IMG/VR virus record: IMGVR_UViG_3300028601_000019
Span: 68,130 to 132,129 of that record
Length of the DNA: 64,000 nucleotides
Source of the DNA: a virus
Taxonomy: Duplodnaviria; Heunggongvirae; Uroviricota; Caudoviricetes
Reading direction: 5' to 3' (one strand)
The notes under the pieces were generated by a model, which was given only the letters and a program-made list of their open reading frames with translations, was not told where the DNA came from and did not search any database. Every line of letters begins with the position of its first letter. Positions within the stretch are counted from its first letter, which is position 1. A program made the position numbers and the translations under genes. Positions 17,234 to 46,247 of the stretch are shown here, piece after piece.

Positions 17234-18292
17234 TTATTTAAGCTCCCTATTAAAAAGTTTTAAATGTCTATTAAACCATTTTAATTCATTACCTTCAAAT
17301 CAAAGATCATGTTTCAAGGTTTCATAATCTTTCTTTCATACTTCTCTTTGTATATCAAGATTATAAGCATGATTTTCTATATGTGTAATAAAATCACTTG
17401 CTGACTTAGCTTTTAAAGTAGCATTTTTATATGGTTCAATATCTTGAAAGATTCCACAGATGCCAGATGCGACATATTCTTGAAACTTAATATTAGATTT
17501 TGACTTATTAAAATCATTCACTTCTAATGGTGCAATAGCTAAATTAGGGGCAATATTTTTAATAAACTCCGGATACTCGAAATATGATTGCCATCCATGA
17601 ACATATACCTTTTTATTGTCTTTGAGTTCAAAGGGGGCACCACCAATAAAATGTCAATCAAAACGATCTACAGTACTTTTAATATAATCAATGAGTTCTG
17701 ATTGAAAATCTCCACCAGGCCCCTTTTGATTAAAGTGTGTAGATGATCCAGGATAAAGAATTTTTGGTTTAATATATGTTTTTGAAAGATCGAATTTTGG
17801 TTCTTTTCATAAAAATTTTGGAATATAATTTGGAACAACAGAAATATTGGAGTTATACTTTAAAAGTCTATTTCTCAAAAATTCTGTAGATACTGTGATT
17901 CCATCTACAGTTGACAATGCTTCTTCAATATATTTTGCTCTTTCCATATAATAAGATGACGCTATATTGATTTCTGGAATATCAAATACAAAATCATCAT
18001 AATCTGCAATAACAGGAGCCTGTCTAATTCTATGTTTAATATCTTTAATCATTTTTGCATGTGATTCTTCTGCAGGTCGCTGAAATTTTACAAAAAACAT
18101 ATTTTCATAAAATTTAGGATCGGAAATATATGAATATCCATATGTTGAAATAAAAGAAGCTGCTTTGTATCTAAAACTGGTCATCAAAATAGAAGGAATT
18201 CAGGTTCTAATAATCCCACACCCACCACAATCAGCACCTCAAGTGTGAAACATAAATTTACCCTGAGGTTTTATAGTGATTTTTTTAGACAT
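17234..18292 (-). CDS. GT-B glycosyltransferase, 352 aa, code 4 (6 TGA)
   Basis: ADCGGCGIIRT-W-IP, ADYDD, DGITVSTEFL, VVPNYIP, LAIAPLEVNDFNKSKSNIKFQEY. Confidence 0.8.
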
Positions 18293-22771: not shown

Positions 22772-22906
22772 AATTCACTCCAGAAGGTTATTTAATGAAT
22801 TTTTTATTTATTCATTATCTACAGACTTGTAAACAATTATTTTACAAGAGGGAAGTGCCGTTCGTATACATGAAGTATATAAATATTATAAATTAAGGAG
22901 TAAATA

Positions 22907-23689
22907 ATGTATCTTAAAAAACTATCTCAATATTGCGACACAAAATCAAAATATTTTTTATGATATTCAAATCTTATTAATAAGAATTATCATACAAATG
23001 ATTTTGTAAATTCTATAAGAAAGCAAAAATTAAAATTAAATGACAATATTATATATGAAGCTCATCATATTTTGCCGGGGTGTATATGCACACAAGAAGA
23101 AAACAAAGATATAAGAAATATTGTTTTTCTTACTCTACGAGAACATTATATTGCACATATGATATTAAGAAAGGCTATTATATATAAACCTTTACAAGAA
23201 AAAATGAATAATGCTTTTTATTTTATGTCAAATAAATTAAAATTTACTAGCTCAATCATTTATAAAAAATCAAAAATATCAGCAATAGCTAAAAATAAAA
23301 AAATACTTAAAGGCAAACCATCAGTTTTAAAAAACAAAACATATGAAGAAGTTTTTGGAGAAGAAATAGCAAAAAAACTTAAAAAAGAAAAATCAATTTT
23401 TTTTAAAAATAGAAAATTTTCGGAAATTACTTTACAAAAAATGAAAGATAATCACGCGGATTTTTCTGGGGCCAAAAATCCGCGCGCATTAAAAGGTAGT
23501 CTTATTGATAACAATGAAAAAGAAATATTTGAATTTAAAACACTTATTGAATTATCAGAATATTGCAAATCAATTGGTTTGCCTTTTAGAGGGTTAAAAT
23601 CTAATAAATGAATTTATACCCCAAACATTACTGCTAGAAATAAACAATTTAAAAAATTCTTAGGATTTAGTGTAATTTTTGTCGATTAA
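22907..23689 (+). mobile_element. Free-standing HNH homing endonuclease (Mob-like, NUMOD3-type tail), 260 aa, code 4
   Basis: YEAHHILPG...NIVFLTLREHYIAHMIL, YEEVFGEE, HADFSGAKNP. TGA at 22961 and 23609. Antisense to its neighbours; strong RBS aaggag. Confidence 0.85.
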
Positions 23690-24337
23690 ATAAAAATGTC
23701 TTGAATATACATGAAGTGAACCAACTTGATGGATGAGATTTCCGATTGTAAGATCTGGATAATCAAACTTTAAATCTTCAACAAGTTTATTTTGTACATG
23801 TCTTGCCCAATACAAATCGTTCTTTACACCAAAAATCGAATCTGCAGATCGCTGAGATAATACATATACAAGCTTATCATTCCTAATAAGTACCTGGACA
23901 CAATTGGTGCACATGAAATCGCTCATACCATTTTGATTGTATTCCCATTGCATTGACGGTCTATTATAAATCATCATTGCTCTTCGTGAATCTTTATCTC
24001 TGCGCAGTGTTCTTATACAGTTCTTATATTGTTCGCCATTTTCTTTAGAATAAATTACCCAACCATAATTAGAATTAATATAACCATCTTTATCACATAC
24101 TTGTCGCCAAATCTGTGGTGTCTTGGGCAAATCATATACATTTAAGGATTGTGATTCATACCACTCTACTTCACGAGCAGCATACTCCATACTAAGAGTA
24201 CCAAAGATAACTTCTTCATCTGCAATATATGATTCACCAACTAATTCAATTGTCTTTACACCGGTCTTATCAATAACAAATTCTTCATTCTTAAGCTTTT
24301 CAATAAAAGCATTTCTAATATCTTGCATTCGTTTCAT
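23660..24337 (-). CDS. 42: dCMP hydroxymethylase (T4 gp42-like)
   Basis: Close motif match to T4 gp42: DKTGVKTIE, INSNYGW, DSRR.M.IY.RPSMQ..YN..GMSDFMCTN, GSLHVYSRHF. Has Asp (KNDLYW) at the dCMP-specificity position where ThyA has Asn. Confidence 0.9.
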   Translation of the reverse strand: MKRMQDIRNAFIEKLKNEEFVIDKTGVKTIELVGESYIADEEVIFGTLSMEYAAREVEWYESQSLNVYDLPKTPQIWRQVCDKDGYINSNYGWVIYSKENGEQYKNCIRTLRRDKDSRRAMMIYNRPSMQWEYNQNGMSDFMCTNCVQVLIRNDKLVYVLSQRSADSIFGVKNDLYWARHVQNKLVEDLKFDYPDLTIGNLIHQVGSLHVYSRHFYLIDKNYTKS

Positions 24338-37582: not shown

Positions 37583-38587
37583 ATGTTAGATTTACAATTT
37601 GTTTATATTTTCATATTAGAAAATTATCCTAATGTAAGTGTGTCTCGAAATGGGACACACTTCAATTTTAGGTGTCCTTTTTGTGGTGATTCAGAAAAAT
37701 CGTCAAGAAAAAAGCGTTTTCATGTTCAATATGTTTCTGATGAAACTATTTTTTTCAACTGTTTCAACTGTCCTGCTTCTGGAAATTTTTATGATTTGTT
37801 CGCTTTTAATCAAGGAATTTCTTCTGAAGAAGCATATAAAAAACTTAGAAAATTTAATGAGGAAGGAATCAAGAAAAGCCTTACTTCTAAAAATGAATTT
37901 CATAAAAAAGAAATAGATTATTCCAAATATGAAAATTTTAATAATTTTTTAAAGAAGGATTGCTTGTCTATAGATTCTATTCCTTCTTCATATTATCAGA
38001 CTCAGCTTTTAGAATATTTGAAAATGTTTAAAGAGTCTAGAAAAATTTCTTCTGATCTTTTTGTATGTCATTCTGGAACTTTTAATAAAAGAATAATCAT
38101 ACCAATTTTTGAAAATGATATATGTATATTCTTTCAGGGAAGAAGAATTTTAGAATCTCAATACCCAAAATATTTAAACCCAACCGTAGAAAAAGAAAAC
38201 ATTATTCTTAATAAGGGAAATTTTGATAAGGAAAAGTTCATTATTATTACTGAAGGTATTTTAGACGCTGATTCTATTGGAAAACAAGGAACAACGTGTC
38301 TTGGTGCAAATATTAGTGAATCTTTCCTTACTGAACTATTTAAACACACAAACTGTGGTGTAATTCTTGCGTTAGATAATGATAAAACAGGGCAAGAACA
38401 GCTTTATAATATTTTTAAAAGAAGCGAATATAATAAAAAACTAAAATACTTTACTCTTAATAAAGAAAAAGATTTAAATGAGTTCAAAATCAATAATCCT
38501 CTTATAGATATCTATAAATACGTTATAGATAATGCTTTAAGTTATCTAGAAGCATATACACAATTAAGCATAAGGGGAAATTTTTAA
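37583..38587 (+). CDS. 61: DNA primase (gp61-like)
   Basis: Zn finger CPFCGDS...CFNC, RIIIP, FQGR, KYLN, ITEGILDA, ALDND. Confidence 0.92.
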   Translation: MLDLQFVYIFILENYPNVSVSRNGTHFNFRCPFCGDSEKSSRKKRFHVQYVSDETIFFNCFNCPASGNFYDLFAFNQGISSEEAYKKLRKFNEEGIKKSLTSKNEFHKKEIDYSKYENFNNFLKKDCLSIDSIPSSYYQTQLLEYLKMFKESRKISSDLFVCHSGTFNKRIIIPIFENDICIFFQGRRILESQYPKYLNPTVEKENIILNKGNFDKEKFIIITEGILDADSIGKQGTTCLGANISESFLTELFKHTNCGVILALDNDKTGQEQLYNIFKRSEYNKKLKYFTLNKEKDLNEFKINNPLIDIYKYVIDNALSYLEAYTQLSIRGNF

Positions 38588-39054
38588 TGATAATTTCTAA
38601 ATATAAAGAAGATTATATAGAGGTAGATGAGCACTGACTTCGAATTAATGAGGATGTAATTCAGAAAAAAATTCATCTTGTAAAATTAGATTTTAAATAT
38701 CCAACAGAAGAAAAATTAGATCAGTTACTATATATATTACCCAAAACAAATAGATTTATTATAGAAAACAATGTTCGTTTTTACAATGACTATTTCAAGA
38801 AAACAAAGAAAAAATTCTATGTAGAAAATTCATTTAAAGATCAAAAAAGGTTTATTTCCTTTTTAAGAAAGAATAATAAAATCCTTTTAGATTTTACTAA
38901 AATAGATTCATTAAGTTTAAAACATATTTTGTTAGAATTAAATTGAGAAGATCTATTAAATAATATTGAAATCTTAAAAATATCTTTTGTTGATTTTGAG
39001 CTATATAGATCTCGATTTTCTCAATGAGATGGCAATATTATTATAATGGAATAA
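38587..39054 (+). CDS. Hypothetical protein, 155 aa, code 4 (3 TGA); absent from the track
   Basis: TAATG-coupled to primase; open only with TGA = Trp. Confidence 0.65.
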
Positions 39055-39056
39055 AC

Positions 39057-39851
39057 ATGGAAAAAATAGCCTTTGGACCATATTTAGGAGATTTTAGATG
39101 TGAAGTCTTTTATTTTTTACCTTATATTAGATGAGTTAAAGATGTTTTGTCGCCCAAAGAAATTTATATCTCTTCTCATTTTAATAGAAAATTTTTATAT
39201 CATGGGTTAGCAACAGAATTTTTTCCAATAAATCCTATGATAAGCGCAGATGAAATTTCTCAAAAGAATCATTTTAACAAAAATATATATAAAACTCACT
39301 ATAATGTATTAGAAAAAGATTTTAAATCTAATTTTGACGAAGACAATATACAATTTTATAATTTTGAATATAATAAGTATAAAATGCCGTGTTCTATGTT
39401 TCAACTTAAATTTGATAGGCTGAATTTTGATATCAGATATAGAATGGAGGATAAGATTTTATTTATTCCGGATAGAAATGAAAAAGAATCTTATCTGGGT
39501 GGTGTATTATCTTATTTGACAACTATTTTGGGTAATAAATTGGTTGTTGCAGGAGATTCCAAAACTCATTTAAATGATAAAAATGTTCTATTAAATAGCA
39601 TTAATTATCATGATATAGTATATAAAGAGTTAGTAAATTATATATCATCCTGTAAAGCAGTAATTTGCCCTGCTTCTGTTTGAAGCGGTATTGCAAATTT
39701 ACAAGAAAGACCTATATTATCATGAGGAAATAGAATTTCAGAATATAAAGATGGTAAATACTATTTTAATAATAAAAAAGGAAAATTTTACCCTAAACTT
39801 GAACTAAACAATCTTATAAAGTGTATAGATAAATTTTTGGAGGAATTGTAA
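39057..39851 (+). CDS. GT-B/GT9-like glycosyltransferase, 264 aa, code 4 (3 TGA)
   Basis: FGPYLGDFRCE...PYIR-W and CKAVICPASV-W-SGIANLQERPILS-W-G. Confidence 0.55.
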
Positions 39852-39854
39852 AAC

Positions 39855-40139
39855 ATGTTAAAAATCCATGATGCGTATTGCCTTTGCGGCTATGAAGATG
39901 AAATTTTTTGCGAAGATGATAATTTTGGTTTGTGTCCAATTTGTGGAAAACAACTACTAAAGGCCTTTTCTACCTTCAATTTTGAATTGAAGTATAATCC
40001 AAAGAAAGATAAAGTAGCATGGGCATCTTCTAATTATGAAGAATCTCAATATTGAAAAGCAGTAAAAGAAGAAAAATTTACTACTGGGAAAACACCTTCT
40101 CATCCTGGATCGTGTGATCATCCCGTTACAAGGAAGTAG
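39855..40139 (+). CDS. FmdB-like Zn-ribbon protein, 94 aa, code 4
   Basis: C.CGY.DE...CPICG and ESQY-W-K. Confidence 0.6.
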
Positions 40140-40145
40140 AAAACT

Positions 40146-41324
40146 ATGAAGAGAAATATTTTATTACTTGGATCTAATGGTTATATAGGATGGGCCCTAC
40201 TTCAAAGGCTCATTAAGAAGGGTTACAATATTTTTTGTGTTGACAATAGATTTAGAGAAAAAGCTGTTTCGTTAGAAATGGGTTCATGTTCTGCAATTAA
40301 AACATTAACAATTTCTCAAAAATATGTGTGGCTAGAAAACTTTAAGAATGTGTCTTGGTATGAATTTGATTATGTTAAAAATGAATCTGGATTGAAACAA
40401 TTGTTTAAAAAATTTAAATTTGATACAATAATCAATCTTGCTCATCAACCATCCGGTCCATATAGCCAAAAATCTTGTGAAAACTCCAAGTTTACAATCA
40501 AAAACAACATTCTTGGGACCAACAATGTTCTCTGGCTAATGAAGCAATATTGTCCAAATGCTCACTATATAACTATTGGATCAACAGGAGAATATAGCCA
40601 CAATTTAGATATTCCTATTGAAGAGGGATACTTTACTATGGAAGGGGCTACTGATAAGTCCATATTTCCTCGCAGAACCAATTCAATTTATCATGCAAGT
40701 AAAATTTCAAGCACATATATAACAGACACTCTTGCAAGAATGTGGAGTCTCAAAACTACAGATATAATGCAAGCTGTTGTTTTTGGTTCATATACGGATG
40801 AAATTGATGAAAGCAAACTTTATACGCGTTTAGATACTGATGCTGCTTTTGGAACCGTATGTAATAAGTTTATGGTTCAAGCTATCTTGGGTATGGATTT
40901 AACAGTTTATGGTATGGGTGATCATAAGAGAGGATTTATTGCTCTCAATGATTCTATTCAGGCTCTGATGATTGCTATTGAAAATGATTCTGAAAATGAT
41001 TTTTATGAAGATTTTTCGCCAAGAGTTTGGAATCAACTTTCTTTTTGGATTTCAATGAATGACCTTGCATATACTGTTAAAAGAATAGCTATGAAAGAAT
41101 TTAACATTAATGTTAATGTTGAACATATAGAAAATCCTAGGCACGAAATTACAGAGGCCCCAAAGCACTATTCATACAAAACAGATATTCTACAATCTTA
41201 TGGATATGAACCAACAAGAACTTTAGAACAAGAACTTGCTTATACTATGAGAATTCTATATAATAATAAAACATATTTAAAAGGTCTCGAAAATAATTTT
41301 AAAAATCATATAAGGTTTAAGTAA
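40146..41324 (+). CDS. sqdB: UDP-sulfoquinovose synthase-like extended SDR (SqdB/SQD1/Agl3 family)
   Basis: GSNGYIGW, VDN, Q.S.PYS, NN..GT.N, GSTGEY, IPIEEGY, YHASK, TRLD.D..FGT, LTVYG.G...RGFI, NPR.E. Confidence 0.82.
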   Translation: MKRNILLLGSNGYIGWALLQRLIKKGYNIFCVDNRFREKAVSLEMGSCSAIKTLTISQKYVWLENFKNVSWYEFDYVKNESGLKQLFKKFKFDTIINLAHQPSGPYSQKSCENSKFTIKNNILGTNNVLWLMKQYCPNAHYITIGSTGEYSHNLDIPIEEGYFTMEGATDKSIFPRRTNSIYHASKISSTYITDTLARMWSLKTTDIMQAVVFGSYTDEIDESKLYTRLDTDAAFGTVCNKFMVQAILGMDLTVYGMGDHKRGFIALNDSIQALMIAIENDSENDFYEDFSPRVWNQLSFWISMNDLAYTVKRIAMKEFNINVNVEHIENPRHEITEAPKHYSYKTDILQSYGYEPTRTLEQELAYTMRILYNNKTYLKGLENNFKNHIRFK

Positions 41325-42589
41325 TGATTTATTGTTTTAACAGTGATAATATTCTAATATCAAAACATGAAACATATGATAATACTGCATTTAATATGTT
41401 AAAGTTTTGTTTTAATGATAAGCGAATTTCATCTTTTATTATTACAGAACATAATAATGACATTAAAGATATAGATTTTGTTTATATTTCTATTAAAAAA
41501 TCTTCTGGGATATTTTTTGATACAGAATATCTTTTTATTAGATCATGCGACTTTGAAAGATTGTATAGATTAAAGTTTTCATCATATAAAGAATTCTTGA
41601 TTTATATTAAAAAACACCAAGAATTTACTTGAAAGAAAAATGATTTTAAATTAGAAGAAGATAAAAAGTATATAAATTTTTATGGAATAACTAATACACT
41701 CGGCATGCCTAATAGGGGCCCTATTATACAAACACAAAATAAAATATATTATTTTAAAAGAGATATATTAGATTTTAAAATTGGTATTCAAAATAAACAT
41801 GAATACTGTCATTGAAATCATATTTTAAACCCCGATTGCAAACGCATAAATTCATCTAATGTAAGTGTGGGACCGAATATTATGATGTTTGATAATAAAA
41901 ATGATTGATGAAAACATCTCAATATTGTTACTGATTCTAATTGAATGAAAGAATACTTTATAAATACATTTAAAATAAAAGAATCTCAATTAAGTGTAAT
42001 ACCGATTTATGTTACTGAGGATTTTTACGAAGCAGAAATCAATTCAAACAAAAATATTGTAGGTATTGTTGGATATCCAAGACATGATGATATTAAAAAT
42101 ATGTTGTCTTTAGTGGAGATATGTAAAAGATTTCCAAATATGAAATTTGAATTGCTTTCAAGCAGAAGCAAAAATCAGTTCCCCAATGATATTCAAAACA
42201 TTAGAAATCTTCAATTTTTTAATGTTCCTCATAAAGATACAATAGAAATTATGAAAAGATGAGGAATGTATATTGGATTAAGTAAAAGGGAACGTGGGCC
42301 AGCAGTATTACAAGAACTAAAAGTTTTAGGTATTCCTACAATTTGCCCAAATCATACTGGGTATAAAGAATTTAAACCATTTATTGCGTTAGATATTGCC
42401 CCACTTCTTGAACATAAAACAAAAGACTTAGATTTATATTCTGATGCAATAGAATATGTTCATAATAATCATGAACAATGTATAAATAAAACACAAGAAG
42501 ATAGAATAAAATTTTGAAATGAAGAAAAATCAACAAAAATTGTTTCTAAAAAATGGGAAGACTTTTTTAGAAAATGCTTAGGAGTATAA
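41324..42589 (+). CDS. GT4-like glycosyltransferase, 421 aa, code 4 (7 TGA, including tandem TGA-TGA)
   Basis: Three track ORFs in one frame. VGPNIM, VTDSN-W-MK, ERGPAVLQELKVLGIPTI (ExxxxxxxE motif). Confidence 0.8.
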
Positions 42590-42591
42590 CA

Positions 42592-43221
42592 ATGAAACTA
42601 GAAAATAACATTTGACATAATGCTTATTCAAATGATCCAGAAAAATATGAATTTTTTAAATCTCAATTGCAGAAACTTAAAGAATCTAGAGAATGGATTT
42701 TAGAAACTCTTTTATCTTTAAAGAAGGTCAAAACTGTTTTAGAAATTGCTACAGGACCTGGACTTGATCTAGAGTATTTACATGATAAATTTGAAGATCT
42801 CCCCTTTAAATATACTGGTGTTGATTATACACCCAAATTTATTGAAATACTAACAGATAAATATCCTCAACATACTTTTATAGAAGCTGATGCAATGGAT
42901 TTGCCATTTGAAGATAATTCATTTGATGTTGTTTATACTAGACACTCTTTAGAACATATGAATGATCCGCATAAAGAGCTCGATGAAATTTTTAGGCTTG
43001 CCAAAAAATATGTTATTATTGGTTGGTTTAGATTGGTAGATTCCCCAACTTCCTTACAAATTAAATCAAGCATTAATGGTGAATTCCCTATGAATGATTT
43101 GAACAGAGAAGAATTTACAGAAAGAGTTTTGGACTGGGGAACTATTGAAGATACATTTACAATCAAACATAATGAATGCTGACTAGTTAAAAAACATACT
43201 AAGAAAGGGAAGAAGAAGTAA
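42592..43221 (+). CDS. Class I SAM-dependent methyltransferase, 209 aa, code 4 (2 TGA)
   Basis: VLEIATGPG, GVDYT, ADAMDLPFEDNSFDVVY.RH.LEH. Confidence 0.88.
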
Positions 43222-44024
43222 TGAAACTTGAATCTGTTCTTGTTACTGGGTCTGATGGATATATTGGAGAAAATCTAGTTAGGTTTTTAGAATCTAAAGG
43301 TGTTTTTAAAATTTATAAAATTGATAAGAAAAGCGGAGTAAGATTAGAGGATGTTGATGTTATTCTAAGGTGTGATTTGATTGTTCATCTTGCTGCTGAA
43401 TCTGGAATTCCTAAATGTGAAGAAGATCCTAAAGAAGCTATTCTAAGTAACATCTCAGCATCCTTCAATATTTTAAATTTAGCATATAAGAATAATATCC
43501 CTGTTATCCTGGCGTCCTCTCAGGCAGCTAAGAACCCTTCTAGTTCTCTTTATGCTAGTACCAAATATGCTATGGAAATAGAAGCTCTTAGATTAAATGA
43601 TAAAGGCGCAAATAATAAAATTCTAAGATTCTCTAATGTTTTTGGTGGTTACAAATATATTGAAAAGAAAAATTCTGTTTTAGCTTGTTTCGCAAAGGCG
43701 TTTTTAAATGGTGAAGAACTCAAGATTCATGGCTCTGGAAAACAAGAAAGAGATTTTATTCATGTTGATGATTTATGTAAGGTTATCTTTCAAATTGGTT
43801 CTCAGATTGATAAGATTAAGGAATCTATTATAGATGTGGGAACTGGTTATCCAATTTCTATTATAAGTATTGTTGATTATCTCAGACTGGATTATGAATA
43901 TAGTAATGAGCGTGATGGTGGAGAAACGTGTAACTTTGCTGACACTTCATTTTTAGAAAAGTATGGATTTGATGTTCCATCTATAAGTAAGCTCTATGAA
44001 TTTTTAAATACACTTCAAAAATAG
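43221..44024 (+). CDS. NAD-dependent nucleotide-sugar epimerase/dehydratase
   Basis: VTGSDGYIG, VHLAA, YASTK, RFSNVFG, RDFIHVDD. Confidence 0.88.
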   Translation: MKLESVLVTGSDGYIGENLVRFLESKGVFKIYKIDKKSGVRLEDVDVILRCDLIVHLAAESGIPKCEEDPKEAILSNISASFNILNLAYKNNIPVILASSQAAKNPSSSLYASTKYAMEIEALRLNDKGANNKILRFSNVFGGYKYIEKKNSVLACFAKAFLNGEELKIHGSGKQERDFIHVDDLCKVIFQIGSQIDKIKESIIDVGTGYPISIISIVDYLRLDYEYSNERDGGETCNFADTSFLEKYGFDVPSISKLYEFLNTLQK

Positions 44025-44047
44025 AAAGGGGTATTTGACCCCTTTCT
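44023..44047. terminator. Hairpin between convergent genes
   Basis: agaaagggg-tatttga-cccctttct. Confidence 0.7.
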
Positions 44048-44700
44048 TATAGAAAATCCCGTAATACTCTTTCCCTTTTAACATTATAATCTTCGGCGCT
44101 TCTTGTACTTATAGAATCTTTTGATGCATATGCAGTAAAAAATCCTTCACATGATTTCCCTATATATCCTCTCTTCAAACATTTTAAAAGAAAGGCCCAA
44201 TCTAACAACCTCACATATTGATCATCTGTCACTAATCCAACGTCATTTATTACTTTACTCTTGAACATTGAATTAGATGAAATATAATTTCCTTTCTTAA
44301 GTTTTTCTTTATTAAATTCAATAGCAGGAAAAGAGTTATTTATTGCTCCTTTATATTCAAAAGAACAATAGGTATATGCTATATTGTTATTTTTAAAATC
44401 TTCTTTTTTTAAAGAATAATGCATCTTTACTAATGTACCATCTTTCCATTCTGTATCATTATCAATTTTGATTACATATGGTGCAAGTAATTTTAATTCT
44501 TTTAATGTATTAAATCCTTCGGAAAAATTCCCCATAACATTCATGTTGGATTCAATAGAAATCCAGTTAAATGGAATTTCACAATCTTTCACTGTTCTTA
44601 GAGTTTCATTAGAAATTTTATCCCCACACTTCAGTGGAGTAACAATGCTGAAGTGTGGGGATTTTTCAAGTTGAATAAAGTTGATAATTGTATTATTCAT
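44047..44700 (-). CDS. GT2-like glycosyltransferase
   Basis: SIVTPL, KIDND (DxD), YISSNSMFK, LLDWAFLL. Confidence 0.7.
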   Translation of the reverse strand: MNNTIINFIQLEKSPHFSIVTPLKCGDKISNETLRTVKDCEIPFNWISIESNMNVMGNFSEGFNTLKELKLLAPYVIKIDNDTEWKDGTLVKMHYSLKKEDFKNNNIAYTYCSFEYKGAINNSFPAIEFNKEKLKKGNYISSNSMFKSKVINDVGLVTDDQYVRLLDWAFLLKCLKRGYIGKSCEGFFTAYASKDSISTRSAEDYNVKRERVLRDFL

Positions 44701-45109
44701 CACTACTATAAATTTGATCTGCAATTAGCTGCAAACGTTCATATAGTTCAATTTCATGGGGTTCAATTTCATTAACAGAAAGTAGAGAAAATTTCTTGAT
44801 TTTGATTTTATCATCGTAATCCACAGTCTTTAGAAGAAGCTTAATAAGTCCATCTTTATCCTCTGCACTAATGTTATCCATAACAGTTTGGTCAAAGATT
44901 AGAACAATGTCATATCCATTTTCATGTCTTTCATCGATAGATAAATAAGACATGAAAGGATTCAATGCCTTAACTTCCCCAATGACATATTCGCCATTGG
45001 ACTTCTTTTTACGATTACGAGCACAAATAAGTCAGTTTAGATTCATTAGATGTGGATATTCCTTGGACAAGATCTCATCAAAAATTTCACAGTTGTACGA
45101 TTCAAACAT
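44693..45109 (-). CDS. Hypothetical protein, 138 aa, code 4
   Basis: The track ORF extends through TGA 45032-45034 to ATG 45109, which has RBS aaggag. Confidence 0.7.
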
Positions 45110-45140
45110 TTTTAATTCTCCTTATGAGGTATTTATTTTT

Positions 45141-46247
45141 ATGAATTTATTAAGTATTATTGGAAAGATAATTTTACATATAATCCTCCTACCAGTTAAA
45201 ATTTTAGTATCTGTTCTTTTTAACTTTTTGTATTTACCTTCAGTTAAATTCGATTCAAATATATATTACACTACTCCTACAGTAGATGTAAACAAAAGAG
45301 CCGAAGAAATAAAAAATTCTTTGAACATAAATGCATATATTAATGATGGCGATGGTGCAAAATTTTTGGGTCTTGCATACACATCGTGTAAAGACAAAAG
45401 ACTTTGAGATGAAGTATCAACTCTTCTGTATGGACTTTCATATATACTTCGGGTTCCTTGGTCAGAAAACTACGATCAAAAAGTTTTTTCTGGTGATATG
45501 TGAGCAGGAATGTTTCCTGCTATATTGACAGCTTTAGAAAATAATCATATGTCAAATTGACATAAAAAGCAAGTCTTAAGCATTATAGAAAACACCATTT
45601 TTAATGGAAAATCTTTTGTTTTTAAGCATCCCATTGATGATGATCAAGATCGTGGTTTTATTTTCCCCTTTTGGTCAATGGGATCTAATTTTTTTGATGT
45701 AATATCAATGTGTTTAATAGCTGAAAAGTTAAATGGTGGAGTTAAATATAAAGTCTTAAGATACATTTTTACCATTATAGGATTTCCATTGATGTTCTTT
45801 TTAAGACAAGGGATATTTATTAAAGATGTTTATGCATTAAATTTTTTCACGGAACACTCTGCGCTTGTTAAAGCGTATTATGTATATAAGTTTTGTGGAT
45901 ATAAATTTTTGAAACGCCCAATTGTAAGGCATTGTGAAGATAATCCTTGATTTTTAGATTCTGCTAAATTTTTACAAGATTTAACAGGAAATTCTTCATA
46001 TGATATGTTTTTAAATGATTATCTCAACACAACCAACTTAGAAAACATTGAAAACATTCCATGGACATTTAAACATACATATTTTTCATTAAAAGGATTT
46101 GAAAAGAAAGATACTTATTCACTTTATTCTTTACCATATAGATTTAGAATGGGATCTAAATATTTAGATGATGATAAGCCTATGGAACCAAAAGGGGAAA
46201 AGAAATTACAATCAACTGCCGATTTCATTCATTTTTATAATTGATAA
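45141..46247 (+). CDS. Unknown membrane-associated protein, about 368 aa, code 4 (4 internal TGA + TGA-TAA end)
   Basis: Three track ORFs share one frame. RBS gaggt; hydrophobic N-terminus and a central hydrophobic segment. Confidence 0.7.

Follow-up and report, generated by a model that had tools for sequence, protein, structure and literature searches.

Described systems closest to the locus

Extended short-chain dehydrogenases/reductases (SDRs) of the SQD1/SqdB/Agl3 superfamily, the UDP-sulfoquinovose synthases of plants (SQD1), bacteria (SqdB) and Sulfolobus (Agl3), are known from sulfolipid and archaeal N-glycan contexts, and SQD1 has been solved in structure (1QRR, 1I24). A 392-amino-acid (aa) enzyme of this superfamily is encoded within a run of sugar-related genes at positions 38587-44700 of the DNA analysed here, a stretch of 64,000 nucleotides (the window) that corresponds to bases 68130-132129 of an IMG/VR virus record (164.7 kb, estimated to be 69% complete). 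The phage enzyme resembles SQD1, SqdB and Agl3 in its full-length homology, its size (∼390 aa) and its GxxGxxG, Ser/Thr, Tyr-His-x-x-Lys, Gly-Glu-Tyr, IEEGY and RLD..D..FGT elements. Unlike them, it belongs to a separate phage-restricted clade, carries Asn/His/Pro for their His/Glu/Arg and S-T-G for their T-M-G, and lies in neither a sulfolipid nor an archaeal N-glycan context.

Two kinds of viral sugar cassette are also comparable. Phage DNA-glycan clusters include the T4 alpha- and beta-glycosyltransferases (GTs) acting on 5-hydroxymethylcytosine (hmC), the arabinosyl-5-hydroxycytosine systems of RB69, DLP3 and HY126 with their UDP-arabinose genes, and clusters associated with 5mYOX or ThyS, in which a GT is paired with a partner sugar epimerase. 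The present locus is like these in that a hydroxymethylase-bearing, T4-like phage encodes several soluble transferases and nucleotide-sugar SDRs among its replication genes, one of the transferases having the GT4-like fold common to the HY126 GT and T4 alpha-GT; it differs in that reports on those clusters mention no SQD1-type enzyme, GT9-like transferase or sugar methyltransferase, in that the canonical beta-GT gene here lies outside the cassette, and in that the cassette shows late-type coding. Virion glycosylation is the second precedent, known from the nucleotide-sugar pathways of chloroviruses and mimiviruses, which produce methylated sugars, and from the glycosylated capsids and tails of mycobacteriophages. 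The present cassette resembles these systems in encoding cytoplasmic SDRs for sugar nucleotides together with several transferases and a methyltransferase, with plausibly late expression, whereas those viruses use RmlB-type 4,6-dehydratases in place of an SQD1-type enzyme, and neither a glycosylated virion protein nor an acceptor tag was recognized here.

The view of the sequence-only reading, an earlier appraisal of this DNA, that no phage pathway of this kind has been described holds in so far as none has been characterized, although a Mu-like viral contig from the Cariaco Basin was already on record as carrying an auxiliary gene for a putative UDP-sulfoquinovose synthase (PMC7785012). That contig is similar in placing an SQD1-family gene on a virus of anoxic water, where it was read as glycosylation-related; it differs in concerning a single gene, with no residue analysis or cassette, whereas the present gene lies in a recoded T4-like phage as part of a conserved multi-gene cassette (PMC7785012). 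In the literature, no description was found of this clade, its altered active site or this cassette.

The locus is a real, conserved phage glycosylation cassette; the sulfoquinovose label attached to it is a hypothesis, weakened by three active-site changes. The explanation that best accounts for the evidence, to which we give a probability of about 0.6, is a conserved, cytoplasmic and mostly late-coded glycosylation cassette of a T4-like phage recoded from TGA stop to TGA Trp, in which an SDR of the SQD1 branch is the central enzyme. The cassette is taken to be cytoplasmic because transmembrane-like segments are missing from all of its proteins (38587-44700) and it encodes neither a lipid-carrier transferase nor a flippase.

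Genetic code and layout of the cassette

The source is an uncultured T4-like phage that reads TGA as Trp. Under translation table 11 the cassette region falls into fragments, and under table 4 it becomes one continuous, tight run of open reading frames (ORFs). In an SDR orthologue (locus L002, 73% identical), a TGA at codon 130 is aligned to Trp in 120 of 120 database homologues; at the positions of the three TGA codons of the GT9-like gene, 12-13 of 13 standard-code relatives have Trp, as do 10 of 10 at TGA 147 of the 155-aa gene. Since in-frame TGA codons coincide with conserved Trp columns, the alignments show TGA to encode Trp and neither Gly nor a stop. The whole record contains 278 in-frame TGA codons used as Trp, the structural genes being TGA-rich and the probable early and replication genes free of them, so that both marks of a recoded phage, TGA at conserved Trp positions and TGA-free early genes, are present. 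A suppressor tRNA with anticodon UCA was not found among the seven tRNA genes (Arg-CCT, Met, Pro, Thr, Tyr, Leu-CAA and Ala) in the 164.7 kb of this ∼69% complete record. The supposition that the DNA is from a phage is thus confirmed by its IMG/VR record, its T4-like character and its code.

Under this code every gene that had been listed for 38587-44700 is present, with the TGA counts and TAATG couplings as originally given:

38587-39054, + strand: 155-aa protein, no family assigned; 3 TGA; its start overlaps the primase stop (TAATG)
39057-39851, + strand (long ORF from 39024): GT9-like compact GT-B protein, 264 aa from the second ATG; 3 TGA
39855-40139, + strand: zinc (Zn)-ribbon protein, 94 aa, CxC...CPxC, N-terminus FmdB-like by eye; 1 TGA
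40146-41324, + strand: SQD1/SqdB/Agl3-like extended SDR, 392 aa; 0 TGA, 7 TGG
41324-42589, + strand: GT4-like GT-B glycosyltransferase, 421 aa; 7 TGA
42592-43221, + strand (ORF opens at 42574): class I S-adenosylmethionine (SAM)-dependent methyltransferase, 209 aa; 2 TGA
43221-44024, + strand: second nucleotide-sugar SDR (epimerase/reductase type), 267 aa; no Trp codon
44023-44047, no strand assigned: GC-rich 10-bp hairpin, terminator-like, between the convergent genes
44047-44700, − strand (ORF opens at 44724; 225 aa): GT2-like (GT-A) glycosyltransferase, 217 aa from its ATG; 0 TGA, 3 TGG

The order is thus 155-aa protein, GT9-like protein, Zn ribbon, SQD1-like SDR, GT4-like protein, methyltransferase and second sugar SDR, with the GT2-like gene convergent. 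TAATG stop/start overlaps occur at three junctions (primase/155-aa, SDR/GT4-like and methyltransferase/second SDR). The start at 39057 is preferred for the GT9-like gene because its orthologues are 262-267 aa long, and that at 42592 for the methyltransferase because AGGAG precedes its ATG (orthologues are 210-211 aa); the preferred start of the GT2-like gene is 44700.

The window is AT-rich (∼30% GC), and the phage appears to be lytic and T4-like. The genes around the cassette form a T4-type replication set (DnaB-type helicase, 5′-3′ exonuclease/RNase H, SLOG/YAcAr protein and DnaG-type primase), with topoisomerase II subunits, a clamp loader and an NAD ligase in the same region; neighbours concerned with nucleotide metabolism are a dUTPase/dCTPase-like gene, a kinase-like gene (phrog_761; deoxynucleoside monophosphate (dNMP) kinase-like) and a weak ThyX-like match (PF02511). 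Beyond the GT2-like gene, a 431-aa ORF (44952-46247, + strand; five TGA, one strongly hydrophobic segment) overlaps a 138-aa minus-strand gene (44693-45109) by 158 nt; orthologues of the former are 370 aa long, which makes a start further downstream probable. Conservation of the two genes is restricted to close relatives, and neither matches a family.

The SQD1-like SDR and its active site

The SDR matches the NCBIfam model for UDP-sulfoquinovose synthase (NF041015) over its full length at 317.5 bits and does not reach the equivalog cut-off of 575 bits, a narrow threshold (ten other family members score 347-519, and one of eight matching control genomes passes). Its closest solved relative is Arabidopsis SQD1 (1qrr, E 9e-58), the next PDB family being at 1e-7; because the SQD1 match is fifty orders of magnitude ahead of those to other solved SDRs, membership of the SQD1/SqdB/Agl3 branch is, at the level of sequence, solid. 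GSNGYIG (GxxGxxG), Ser146 and Tyr182-His183-Ala-Ser-Lys186 mark it as an extended SDR, and the motifs YHASK, IEEGY, RLDTDAAFGT and HQPSGPYSQ are in place. The original assignment to this superfamily, with a His-containing YHxSK and without the Arg, was therefore sound; when the proposed profile and phylogenetic checks were made, the family match proved to be SQD1 and not a generic epimerase, although the score stayed below 575 bits and the protein fell outside the Arg-type clade.

Across 121 sequences the NAD motif, Ser146, Glu149, Tyr150, Tyr182, His183, Lys186, IEEGY and RLD..D..FGT are invariant or nearly so, the Tyr, His and Lys of Tyr-His-x-x-Lys being strictly invariant. Two segments differ. 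H-F-[GA]-E-Q-R-S-A-P of SQD1 and Agl3 is N-L-A-H-Q-P-S-G-P in the phage SDR, and G-T-M-G-E-Y is G-S-T-G-E-Y; all 120 of the closest database homologues differ from SQD1 and Agl3 at these sites, almost always with the same substitutions. Asn in place of His is commonplace at that position of SDRs, and representatives of the wider SQD1 family often have Pro at the Arg101 site. UDP-sulfoquinovose as the product is therefore possible, not established, on the residues present.

Many SQD1-like homologues of the SDR (P0150, P0151, P0152 and P0155 among them; 733-1164 aa) are split by insertions of 340-770 aa carrying Hint/intein-splicing and LAGLIDADG domains, which identifies the insertions as inteins, at more than one insertion site.

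A phage-restricted clade

The SDR and its nearest relatives share the pattern N-L-A-H-x-P-S / G-[ST]-[TA]-G-E-Y. In a tree of 114 family members (quick method, midpoint root), this Asn/His/Pro clade is monophyletic (15 rows including the query; 99% support in the Shimodaira-Hasegawa-like approximate likelihood ratio test, SH-aLRT) and is separate from the Arg-type clade (96% SH-aLRT), which was taken to hold the SQD1-like enzymes and with which the SDR does not group.

When the peptide patterns of the clade were searched against one genome for each of 185,579 GTDB species, only three loci were confirmed (L009, L010 and L011), on 6-11-kb contigs of metagenome-assembled genomes (MAGs) labelled Parcubacteria, Woesearchaeota and WOR-3. 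One of the three is 72% covered by viral-contig matches and has the primase module; given its phage primase module, L010 is probably a piece of phage DNA that was sorted into a MAG bin. An alignment-based scan of IMG/VR retrieved 34 contigs, 29 of them with this clade or a truncated copy and several longer than 100 kb; a scan of IMG/VR with the SDR as a single sequence gave no match, so that the alignment-based scan was required. Among 50,697 GenBank phage records, tblastn found only distant generic epimerases (≤28% identity), and hence no isolated phage in that set carries the clade. Large contigs that had once seemed cellular, one annotated 'Patescibacteria', look like jumbo phages, with genes for DNA polymerase A, clamp loader, ribonucleotide reductase, ThyX, QueC and MazG adjoining the SDR. 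The clade occurs in both recoded and standard-code phages.

The same clade of SDR also lies inside larger sugar islands on L006 (JGI 3300025117 contig, 156 kb) and L007 and L008 (205 and 60 kb), which encode GT4, GT-D and GT32-like transferases, two methyltransferases and up to three sulfotransferase-family genes; these jumbo-phage islands fit a role in decorated, partly anionic glycans. An SDR identical to the jumbo-phage copy, labelled 'Patescibacteria group bacterium' in NCBI, was also noted.

The seven TGG codons and absence of TGA in the SDR gene, set against the preference of its cassette neighbours for TGA, had been read as a sign of recent acquisition from a donor using code 11. Import from a standard-code cell is now very improbable: orthologues 58-82% identical occupy the same position in related phages, the L002 orthologue has four TGA and three TGG at the aligned Trp sites, the clade is essentially phage-restricted and nearly absent from cellular genomes, the GC content of the gene is unremarkable, and the GT2-like gene and all early genes are equally free of TGA. 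Because the L002 orthologue carries four TGA codons, the TGG-only state is a lineage detail.

Conservation of gene order

Co-occurrence was counted over 42 loci with an SQD1-family gene:

Primase: 21 of 42 loci
155-aa gene: 23 of 42 loci
GT9-like gene: 26 of 42 loci
Zn ribbon: 26 of 42 loci
GT2-like gene: 16 of 42 loci; several directly overlap the SDR stop
GT4-like gene: 7 of 42 loci, close relatives only
Methyltransferase: 12 of 42 loci
Second SDR: 13 of 42 loci

The full gene order is repeated in seven recoded loci, and the core of primase, 155-aa gene, GT9-like gene, Zn ribbon and SDR in at least 14 standard-code phage loci and at least 21 phage loci in all, an arrangement that is far beyond chance. 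The 155-aa gene always stands between primase and GT9-like gene (23 phage loci), whereas in some loci as much as 5 kb lies between Zn ribbon and SDR. In one relative the GT4-like gene, the methyltransferase and the second SDR are missing, while the SDR and the three genes upstream of it are present.

The GT4-fold transferase, SAM methyltransferase, second sugar SDR, GT9-like and GT2-like genes that the sequence-only reading placed beside the SDR are all present. The proposed survey of sqdB-GT4 synteny showed the GT4-like gene to accompany only 7 of the 42 SQD1-family genes and the stable partners to lie upstream; the stable partnership is that of the SDR with the GT9-like and/or GT2-like gene, not with the GT4-like gene. 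A pairing of SqdB-SqdX type, suggested earlier, consequently loses its basis, the GT4-like protein also having no named-family sequence match. An auxiliary function in which an SqdB and an SqdX-like GT4 make sulfoquinovosyl diacylglycerol, sparing phosphate in the host membrane, would be in keeping with a GT4-fold gene standing immediately downstream of an SqdB-family gene, the arrangement of cyanobacterial sqdB-sqdX. It is scarcely credible here, where the GT4-like protein has no NCBIfam match, a sub-threshold PF00534 match, an extra N-terminal domain and so narrow a distribution, where the SDR is outside the Arg-type clade, and where a methyltransferase and two more transferases would be superfluous for a sulfolipid.

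Glycosyltransferase folds and accessory proteins

The fold guesses of the sequence-only reading for the three transferases (GT9-like, GT4 and GT2) are borne out by structure comparison. An AlphaFold2 (AF2) model of the GT9-like orthologue P0135 (56% identical; pLDDT 86) is a compact GT-B fold that Foldseek matches to WaaC/WaaF/GT9 at E 1e-5, with Z scores of 14.2 (3tov), 14.1 (1psw), 13.6 (2h1f) and 12.1 (TibC, a protein-heptosylating GT9 member) against ≤11.2 for other GT-B proteins. The 264-aa protein itself has no Pfam, NCBIfam or PHROG match at E 0.01 and is ∼60-80 aa shorter than GT9 enzymes. Judged on the model of its orthologue, it is predicted to have a GT-B fold closest to GT9, and gives no match to the GT9 sequence family (Pfam Glyco_transf_9, PF01075).

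The GT4-like protein matches PF00534 at E 0.002 (18 bits, below the cut-off of 26.4) and no NCBIfam family. In the model of its orthologue (pLDDT 88) a GT4 catalytic body occupies residues 116-425, over which PimA (Z 25.3) and 7qsg (Z 24.6) are matched, and is preceded by an extra N-terminal domain of ∼115 aa with no structural match. Generic GT4 enzymes (Z 22-25) outscore the DNA transferases (HY126 GT, Z 18.6; T4 alpha-GT, Z 17.1), and T4 beta-GT and alpha-GT are absent from the top 30 Swiss-Prot fold matches of both the GT9-like and the GT4-like models. This is the fastest-evolving protein of the cassette, 45-46% identical to orthologues from loci whose SDR is 73-82% identical, and has only 14 homologues among 5.8 billion proteins; like the 155-aa family, its family is confined to phages. 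For the GT2-like protein, Pfam PF00535 gave sub-threshold matches only (E 0.011-0.086), and the Atlas model aligns with PF00535 clusters at TM 0.78-0.84; invariant D88 and D90 (DxD) and an R-L-L-D-[WY] motif indicate a GT-A enzyme.

The remaining enzymes belong to broad families. The methyltransferase matches PF08241 (1.4e-19) and PF13649 (2.6e-17), a clear but generic assignment. The second SDR matches PF01370 (5.5e-32), its closest PDB entries being generic NDP-sugar epimerases, reductases and dehydratases (6dnt, Cap5F, WbgU and PglF-like; 1e-14 to 1e-9). Searched individually and as profiles, the 155-aa protein and Zn ribbon gave no match in Pfam, NCBIfam, PHROGs or PDB; weak Ku_PK_bind matches (E 0.008-0.03) were judged to be noise. 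A predicted complex of the 155-aa and GT9-like proteins (standard-code orthologues, own alignments) scored 0.00, which counts neither way.

A fourth candidate transferase of 352 aa (17234-18292, − strand; phrog_7162, E 3e-25; six TGA) is nested among TGA-free topoisomerase and clamp-loader genes elsewhere in the window, and has no Pfam or PDB sequence match.

GT9, GT4 and GT2 are the families that assemble lipopolysaccharide (LPS) cores, where the enzymes are likewise soluble or peripheral, and WaaC/WaaF head the matches of the GT9-like model while WaaG and WaaB are among those of the GT4-like model. Working from the cytoplasmic side, the transferases might modify the LPS core of the host or some other envelope precursor and so change the cell surface, which could exclude superinfecting phages or keep progeny from sticking to debris. 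Such remodelling of the host envelope is nonetheless quite improbable: the phage seems lytic and T4-like, its late-coded transferases would have little time to alter the surface, the 155-aa and GT4-like families are phage-confined, and no lipid-carrier or export component is encoded with them.

Timing of expression

A T4 late-promoter-type box precedes the cassette:

38513-38520, + strand: TATAAATA box, inside the 3′ end of the TGA-free primase gene

It lies 67 nt before the first TGA-containing gene (155-aa), and TATAAATA recurs 34-83 nt upstream of the orthologous start in six of six recoded relatives, against one of eight standard-code ones. The box partly overlaps conserved Tyr-Lys-Tyr codons, however, and its conservation may stem from coding. 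Because TATAAATA is not enriched in the window (14 observed, 13.4 expected), the late-promoter reading depends on position and conservation. Codon usage is the second indication: the 155-aa, GT9-like, Zn-ribbon, GT4-like and methyltransferase genes together use 16 TGA and 6 TGG, like structural genes, and the primase directly upstream has no Trp codon. Late expression of most of the cassette is plausible on these signatures; the description of the whole as a late operon, made earlier from the sequence, holds for the TGA signature of most genes and the upstream box and fails for the SDR and GT2-like genes, which use TGG only.

A TATAAATA at 22878 also precedes a homing-endonuclease-like gene (phrog_655; 22907-23689, + strand; two TGA), which abuts a TGA-free deoxycytidine monophosphate (dCMP) hydroxymethylase gene on the opposite strand.

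A proposed pathway and its product

In the proposed pathway, the SDR would bind NAD+ and a UDP-hexose and perform the C4 oxidation and 5,6-dehydration of its family, releasing a C6-modified UDP-hexose; these steps are probably retained, because Ser146, Glu149, Tyr150, Tyr182, His183 and Lys186 are all conserved. The product may be UDP-sulfoquinovose, provided that sulfite can still be added despite the Asn/His/Pro/Thr replacements, an outcome that we regard as somewhat doubtful on the residues; otherwise it would be a 5,6-ene- or 6-deoxy-type sugar, or a sugar with another C6 substituent. The soluble transferases would build a short glycan, the GT9-like and GT2-like enzymes throughout the clade and the fast-evolving GT4-like enzyme in this lineage, which the methyltransferase would O-methylate and the second SDR tailor by epimerization or reduction. 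The acceptor would be made inside the infected cell, late in infection.

Several observations weigh against this reading or parts of it. Alanine mutants of Agl3 at His95, Arg101, Met145, Tyr182 and Lys186 are inactive (PMC4388408), and while the Tyr and Lys are kept, the first three correspond to Asn97, Pro102 and Thr147 in the phage SDR and to Asn, Pro and Thr/Ala clade-wide. For Arg101, which the sequence-only reading called the sulfite-site residue, the documented property is this need for it in Agl3. [ST]MG, a signature of UDP-sulfoquinovose synthases (PMC8987622, Table 1), is replaced by STG in the SDR and [ST]-[TA]-G in the clade, Met occurring in one of 121 sequences. Since both the Agl3-essential residues and the signature are changed, sulfite addition is doubtful. 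Neither a 3′-phosphoadenosine 5′-phosphosulfate (PAPS) reductase (PF01507) nor a sulfotransferase (PF13469) that could bear on sulfite supply or sulfation was found in the 164.7 kb. The SDR and GT2-like genes are TGA-free, so 'late' is not valid for the whole cassette, and the upstream genes may have stayed together, at least in part, through inheritance of the T4-like order and not through functional coupling. The GT folds do not discriminate between acceptors, with protein, lipid, small-molecule and DNA transferases all among their matches, and no Ser/Thr-rich (mucin-like Ser/Thr/Pro) tags were seen on virion proteins in the genome.

Several of these points would be accounted for if the SDR no longer added sulfite and served as a 5,6- or 4,6-dehydratase of UDP-glucose, with the 267-aa SDR reducing or epimerizing the keto intermediate and the methyltransferase methylating the sugar, as happens in giant-virus glycans with methylated deoxy-sugars. 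Agl3 without sulfite releases UDP-glucose-5,6-ene (PMC4388408), the Glu-Tyr dehydratase pair is kept while the sulfoquinovose-signature residues are replaced, the second SDR and methyltransferase are translationally coupled downstream, and no sulfite-supplying gene was found in 164.7 kb. A 6-deoxyhexose pathway of this kind is nevertheless rather unlikely. The second SDR is missing from most clade loci (present in 13 of 42), the clade keeps His183, IEEGY and RLD..D..FGT, which are SQD1-specific and lacking in ordinary 4,6-dehydratases, and sulfotransferases in the related islands show that anionic, sulfur-containing glycans are made by these phages.

Predicted DNA modification and the acceptor

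Two further genes of the record bear on the acceptor:

23660-24337, − strand: gp42-type dCMP hydroxymethylase, 225 aa, TGA-free; E 2.2e-74 to T4 1b49
146125-147237 of the record (G000:C1:146125-147237; 77996-79108 on the window scale, outside the window), − strand: T4 beta-glucosyltransferase homologue, 370 aa, PF09198 at 79 bits, TGA-free

The hydroxymethylase has Asp at both sites that separate such enzymes from thymidylate synthases and 5-hydroxy-dCMP synthases, the diagnostic Asp criteria for the gp42 type (PMC13326640). Because both residues are present, the phage very probably puts hmC in its DNA, as far as can be predicted from the enzyme. T4 alpha-GT (PF11440) has no match in the 164.7-kb record. 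Among relatives bearing the module, only the close relative has a gp42-type gene, the others, which are fragment records, having a homologue of dUMP-type thymidylate synthase or none. Two standard-code module carriers (G004 and G006) encode thymidylate-synthase homologues (L047:1075-1878 and L048:1039-1896; PPCL...FRSWD...GFPAN) with Asn at the base-selecting site, which are dUMP-type and not gp42-type.

Known acceptors of GT9-fold enzymes are LPS cores and autotransporter proteins, and we know of no DNA transferase of GT9-like fold, which counts against a DNA pathway. A virion protein is tentatively taken as the acceptor in the cassette, at a little short of even odds; DNA, by extension of glucosyl-hmC, is less probable, and the host LPS core is an improbable third. 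DNA would be in keeping with the hydroxymethylase and beta-GT in the genome and with the position of the cassette in the replication cluster, and multi-GT and 'GT plus partner SDR' DNA-glycan clusters are established (10.1101/2023.12.21.572611; PMC13326640). The late-type coding of the cassette, as against the TGA-free beta-GT, the better match to generic GT4 enzymes than to DNA transferases and the lack of a gp42-type enzyme in the more distant module-bearing phages (fragments) speak against DNA or for a protein.

A specific form of the DNA pathway would place a sulfonated glycan, derived from UDP-sulfoquinovose, and a methylated sugar on glucosyl-5-hydroxymethylcytosine, where they would block nucleases. 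The gp42-type hydroxymethylase, the dNMP kinase-like and dUTPase/dCTPase-like genes and the beta-glucosyltransferase homologue all agree with it, as do the place of the cassette after primase inside the replication cluster, the GT4-like fold of the DNA transferases (HY126 GT, Z 18.6; T4 alpha-GT, Z 17.1) and the known phage DNA-glycan clusters that combine a GT with a partner sugar SDR or several GTs (10.1101/2023.12.21.572611; PMC13326640). Pro at 'Arg101' is moreover common in the SQD1 family, so the Arg may not be universally needed. We consider this form unlikely, given that the dedicated beta-GT is of the TGA-free, early type while the GT9-like and GT4-like genes are TGA-rich, that generic GT4 enzymes outscore the DNA transferases, that a gp42-like gene was found only in the close relative, other module phages having a dUMP-type homologue or none in their fragmentary records, and that three Agl3-essential residues are changed in the SDR. 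As long a shot is the broader proposal that the re-tooled, phage-only SQD1 branch (Asn/His/Pro/Thr) makes an undescribed nucleotide sugar, sulfonated or with another C6 substituent, which is installed with a methylated sugar on the glucosyl-hmC DNA of T4-like phages. If true, a nucleic acid would for the first time be known to bear a sulfonated or C6-substituted glycan, and a GT9-fold DNA glycosyltransferase would come with it.

Implications for phage glycosylation

Phage sugar cassettes decide how DNA or virions are hidden from bacterial defences and are a source of new glycosylation enzymes. Most of the cassette of this recoded phage is in the late, TGA-containing code, and the SDR gene, having no TGA, could be expressed directly in Escherichia coli, so that whether this viral branch adds sulfite or makes a new product can be tested at once. 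A large branch of the 'plant sulfolipid' enzyme family is almost purely viral and has an altered active site; in T4-like phages this branch travels with GT9-fold and GT2-fold transferases and two small proteins.

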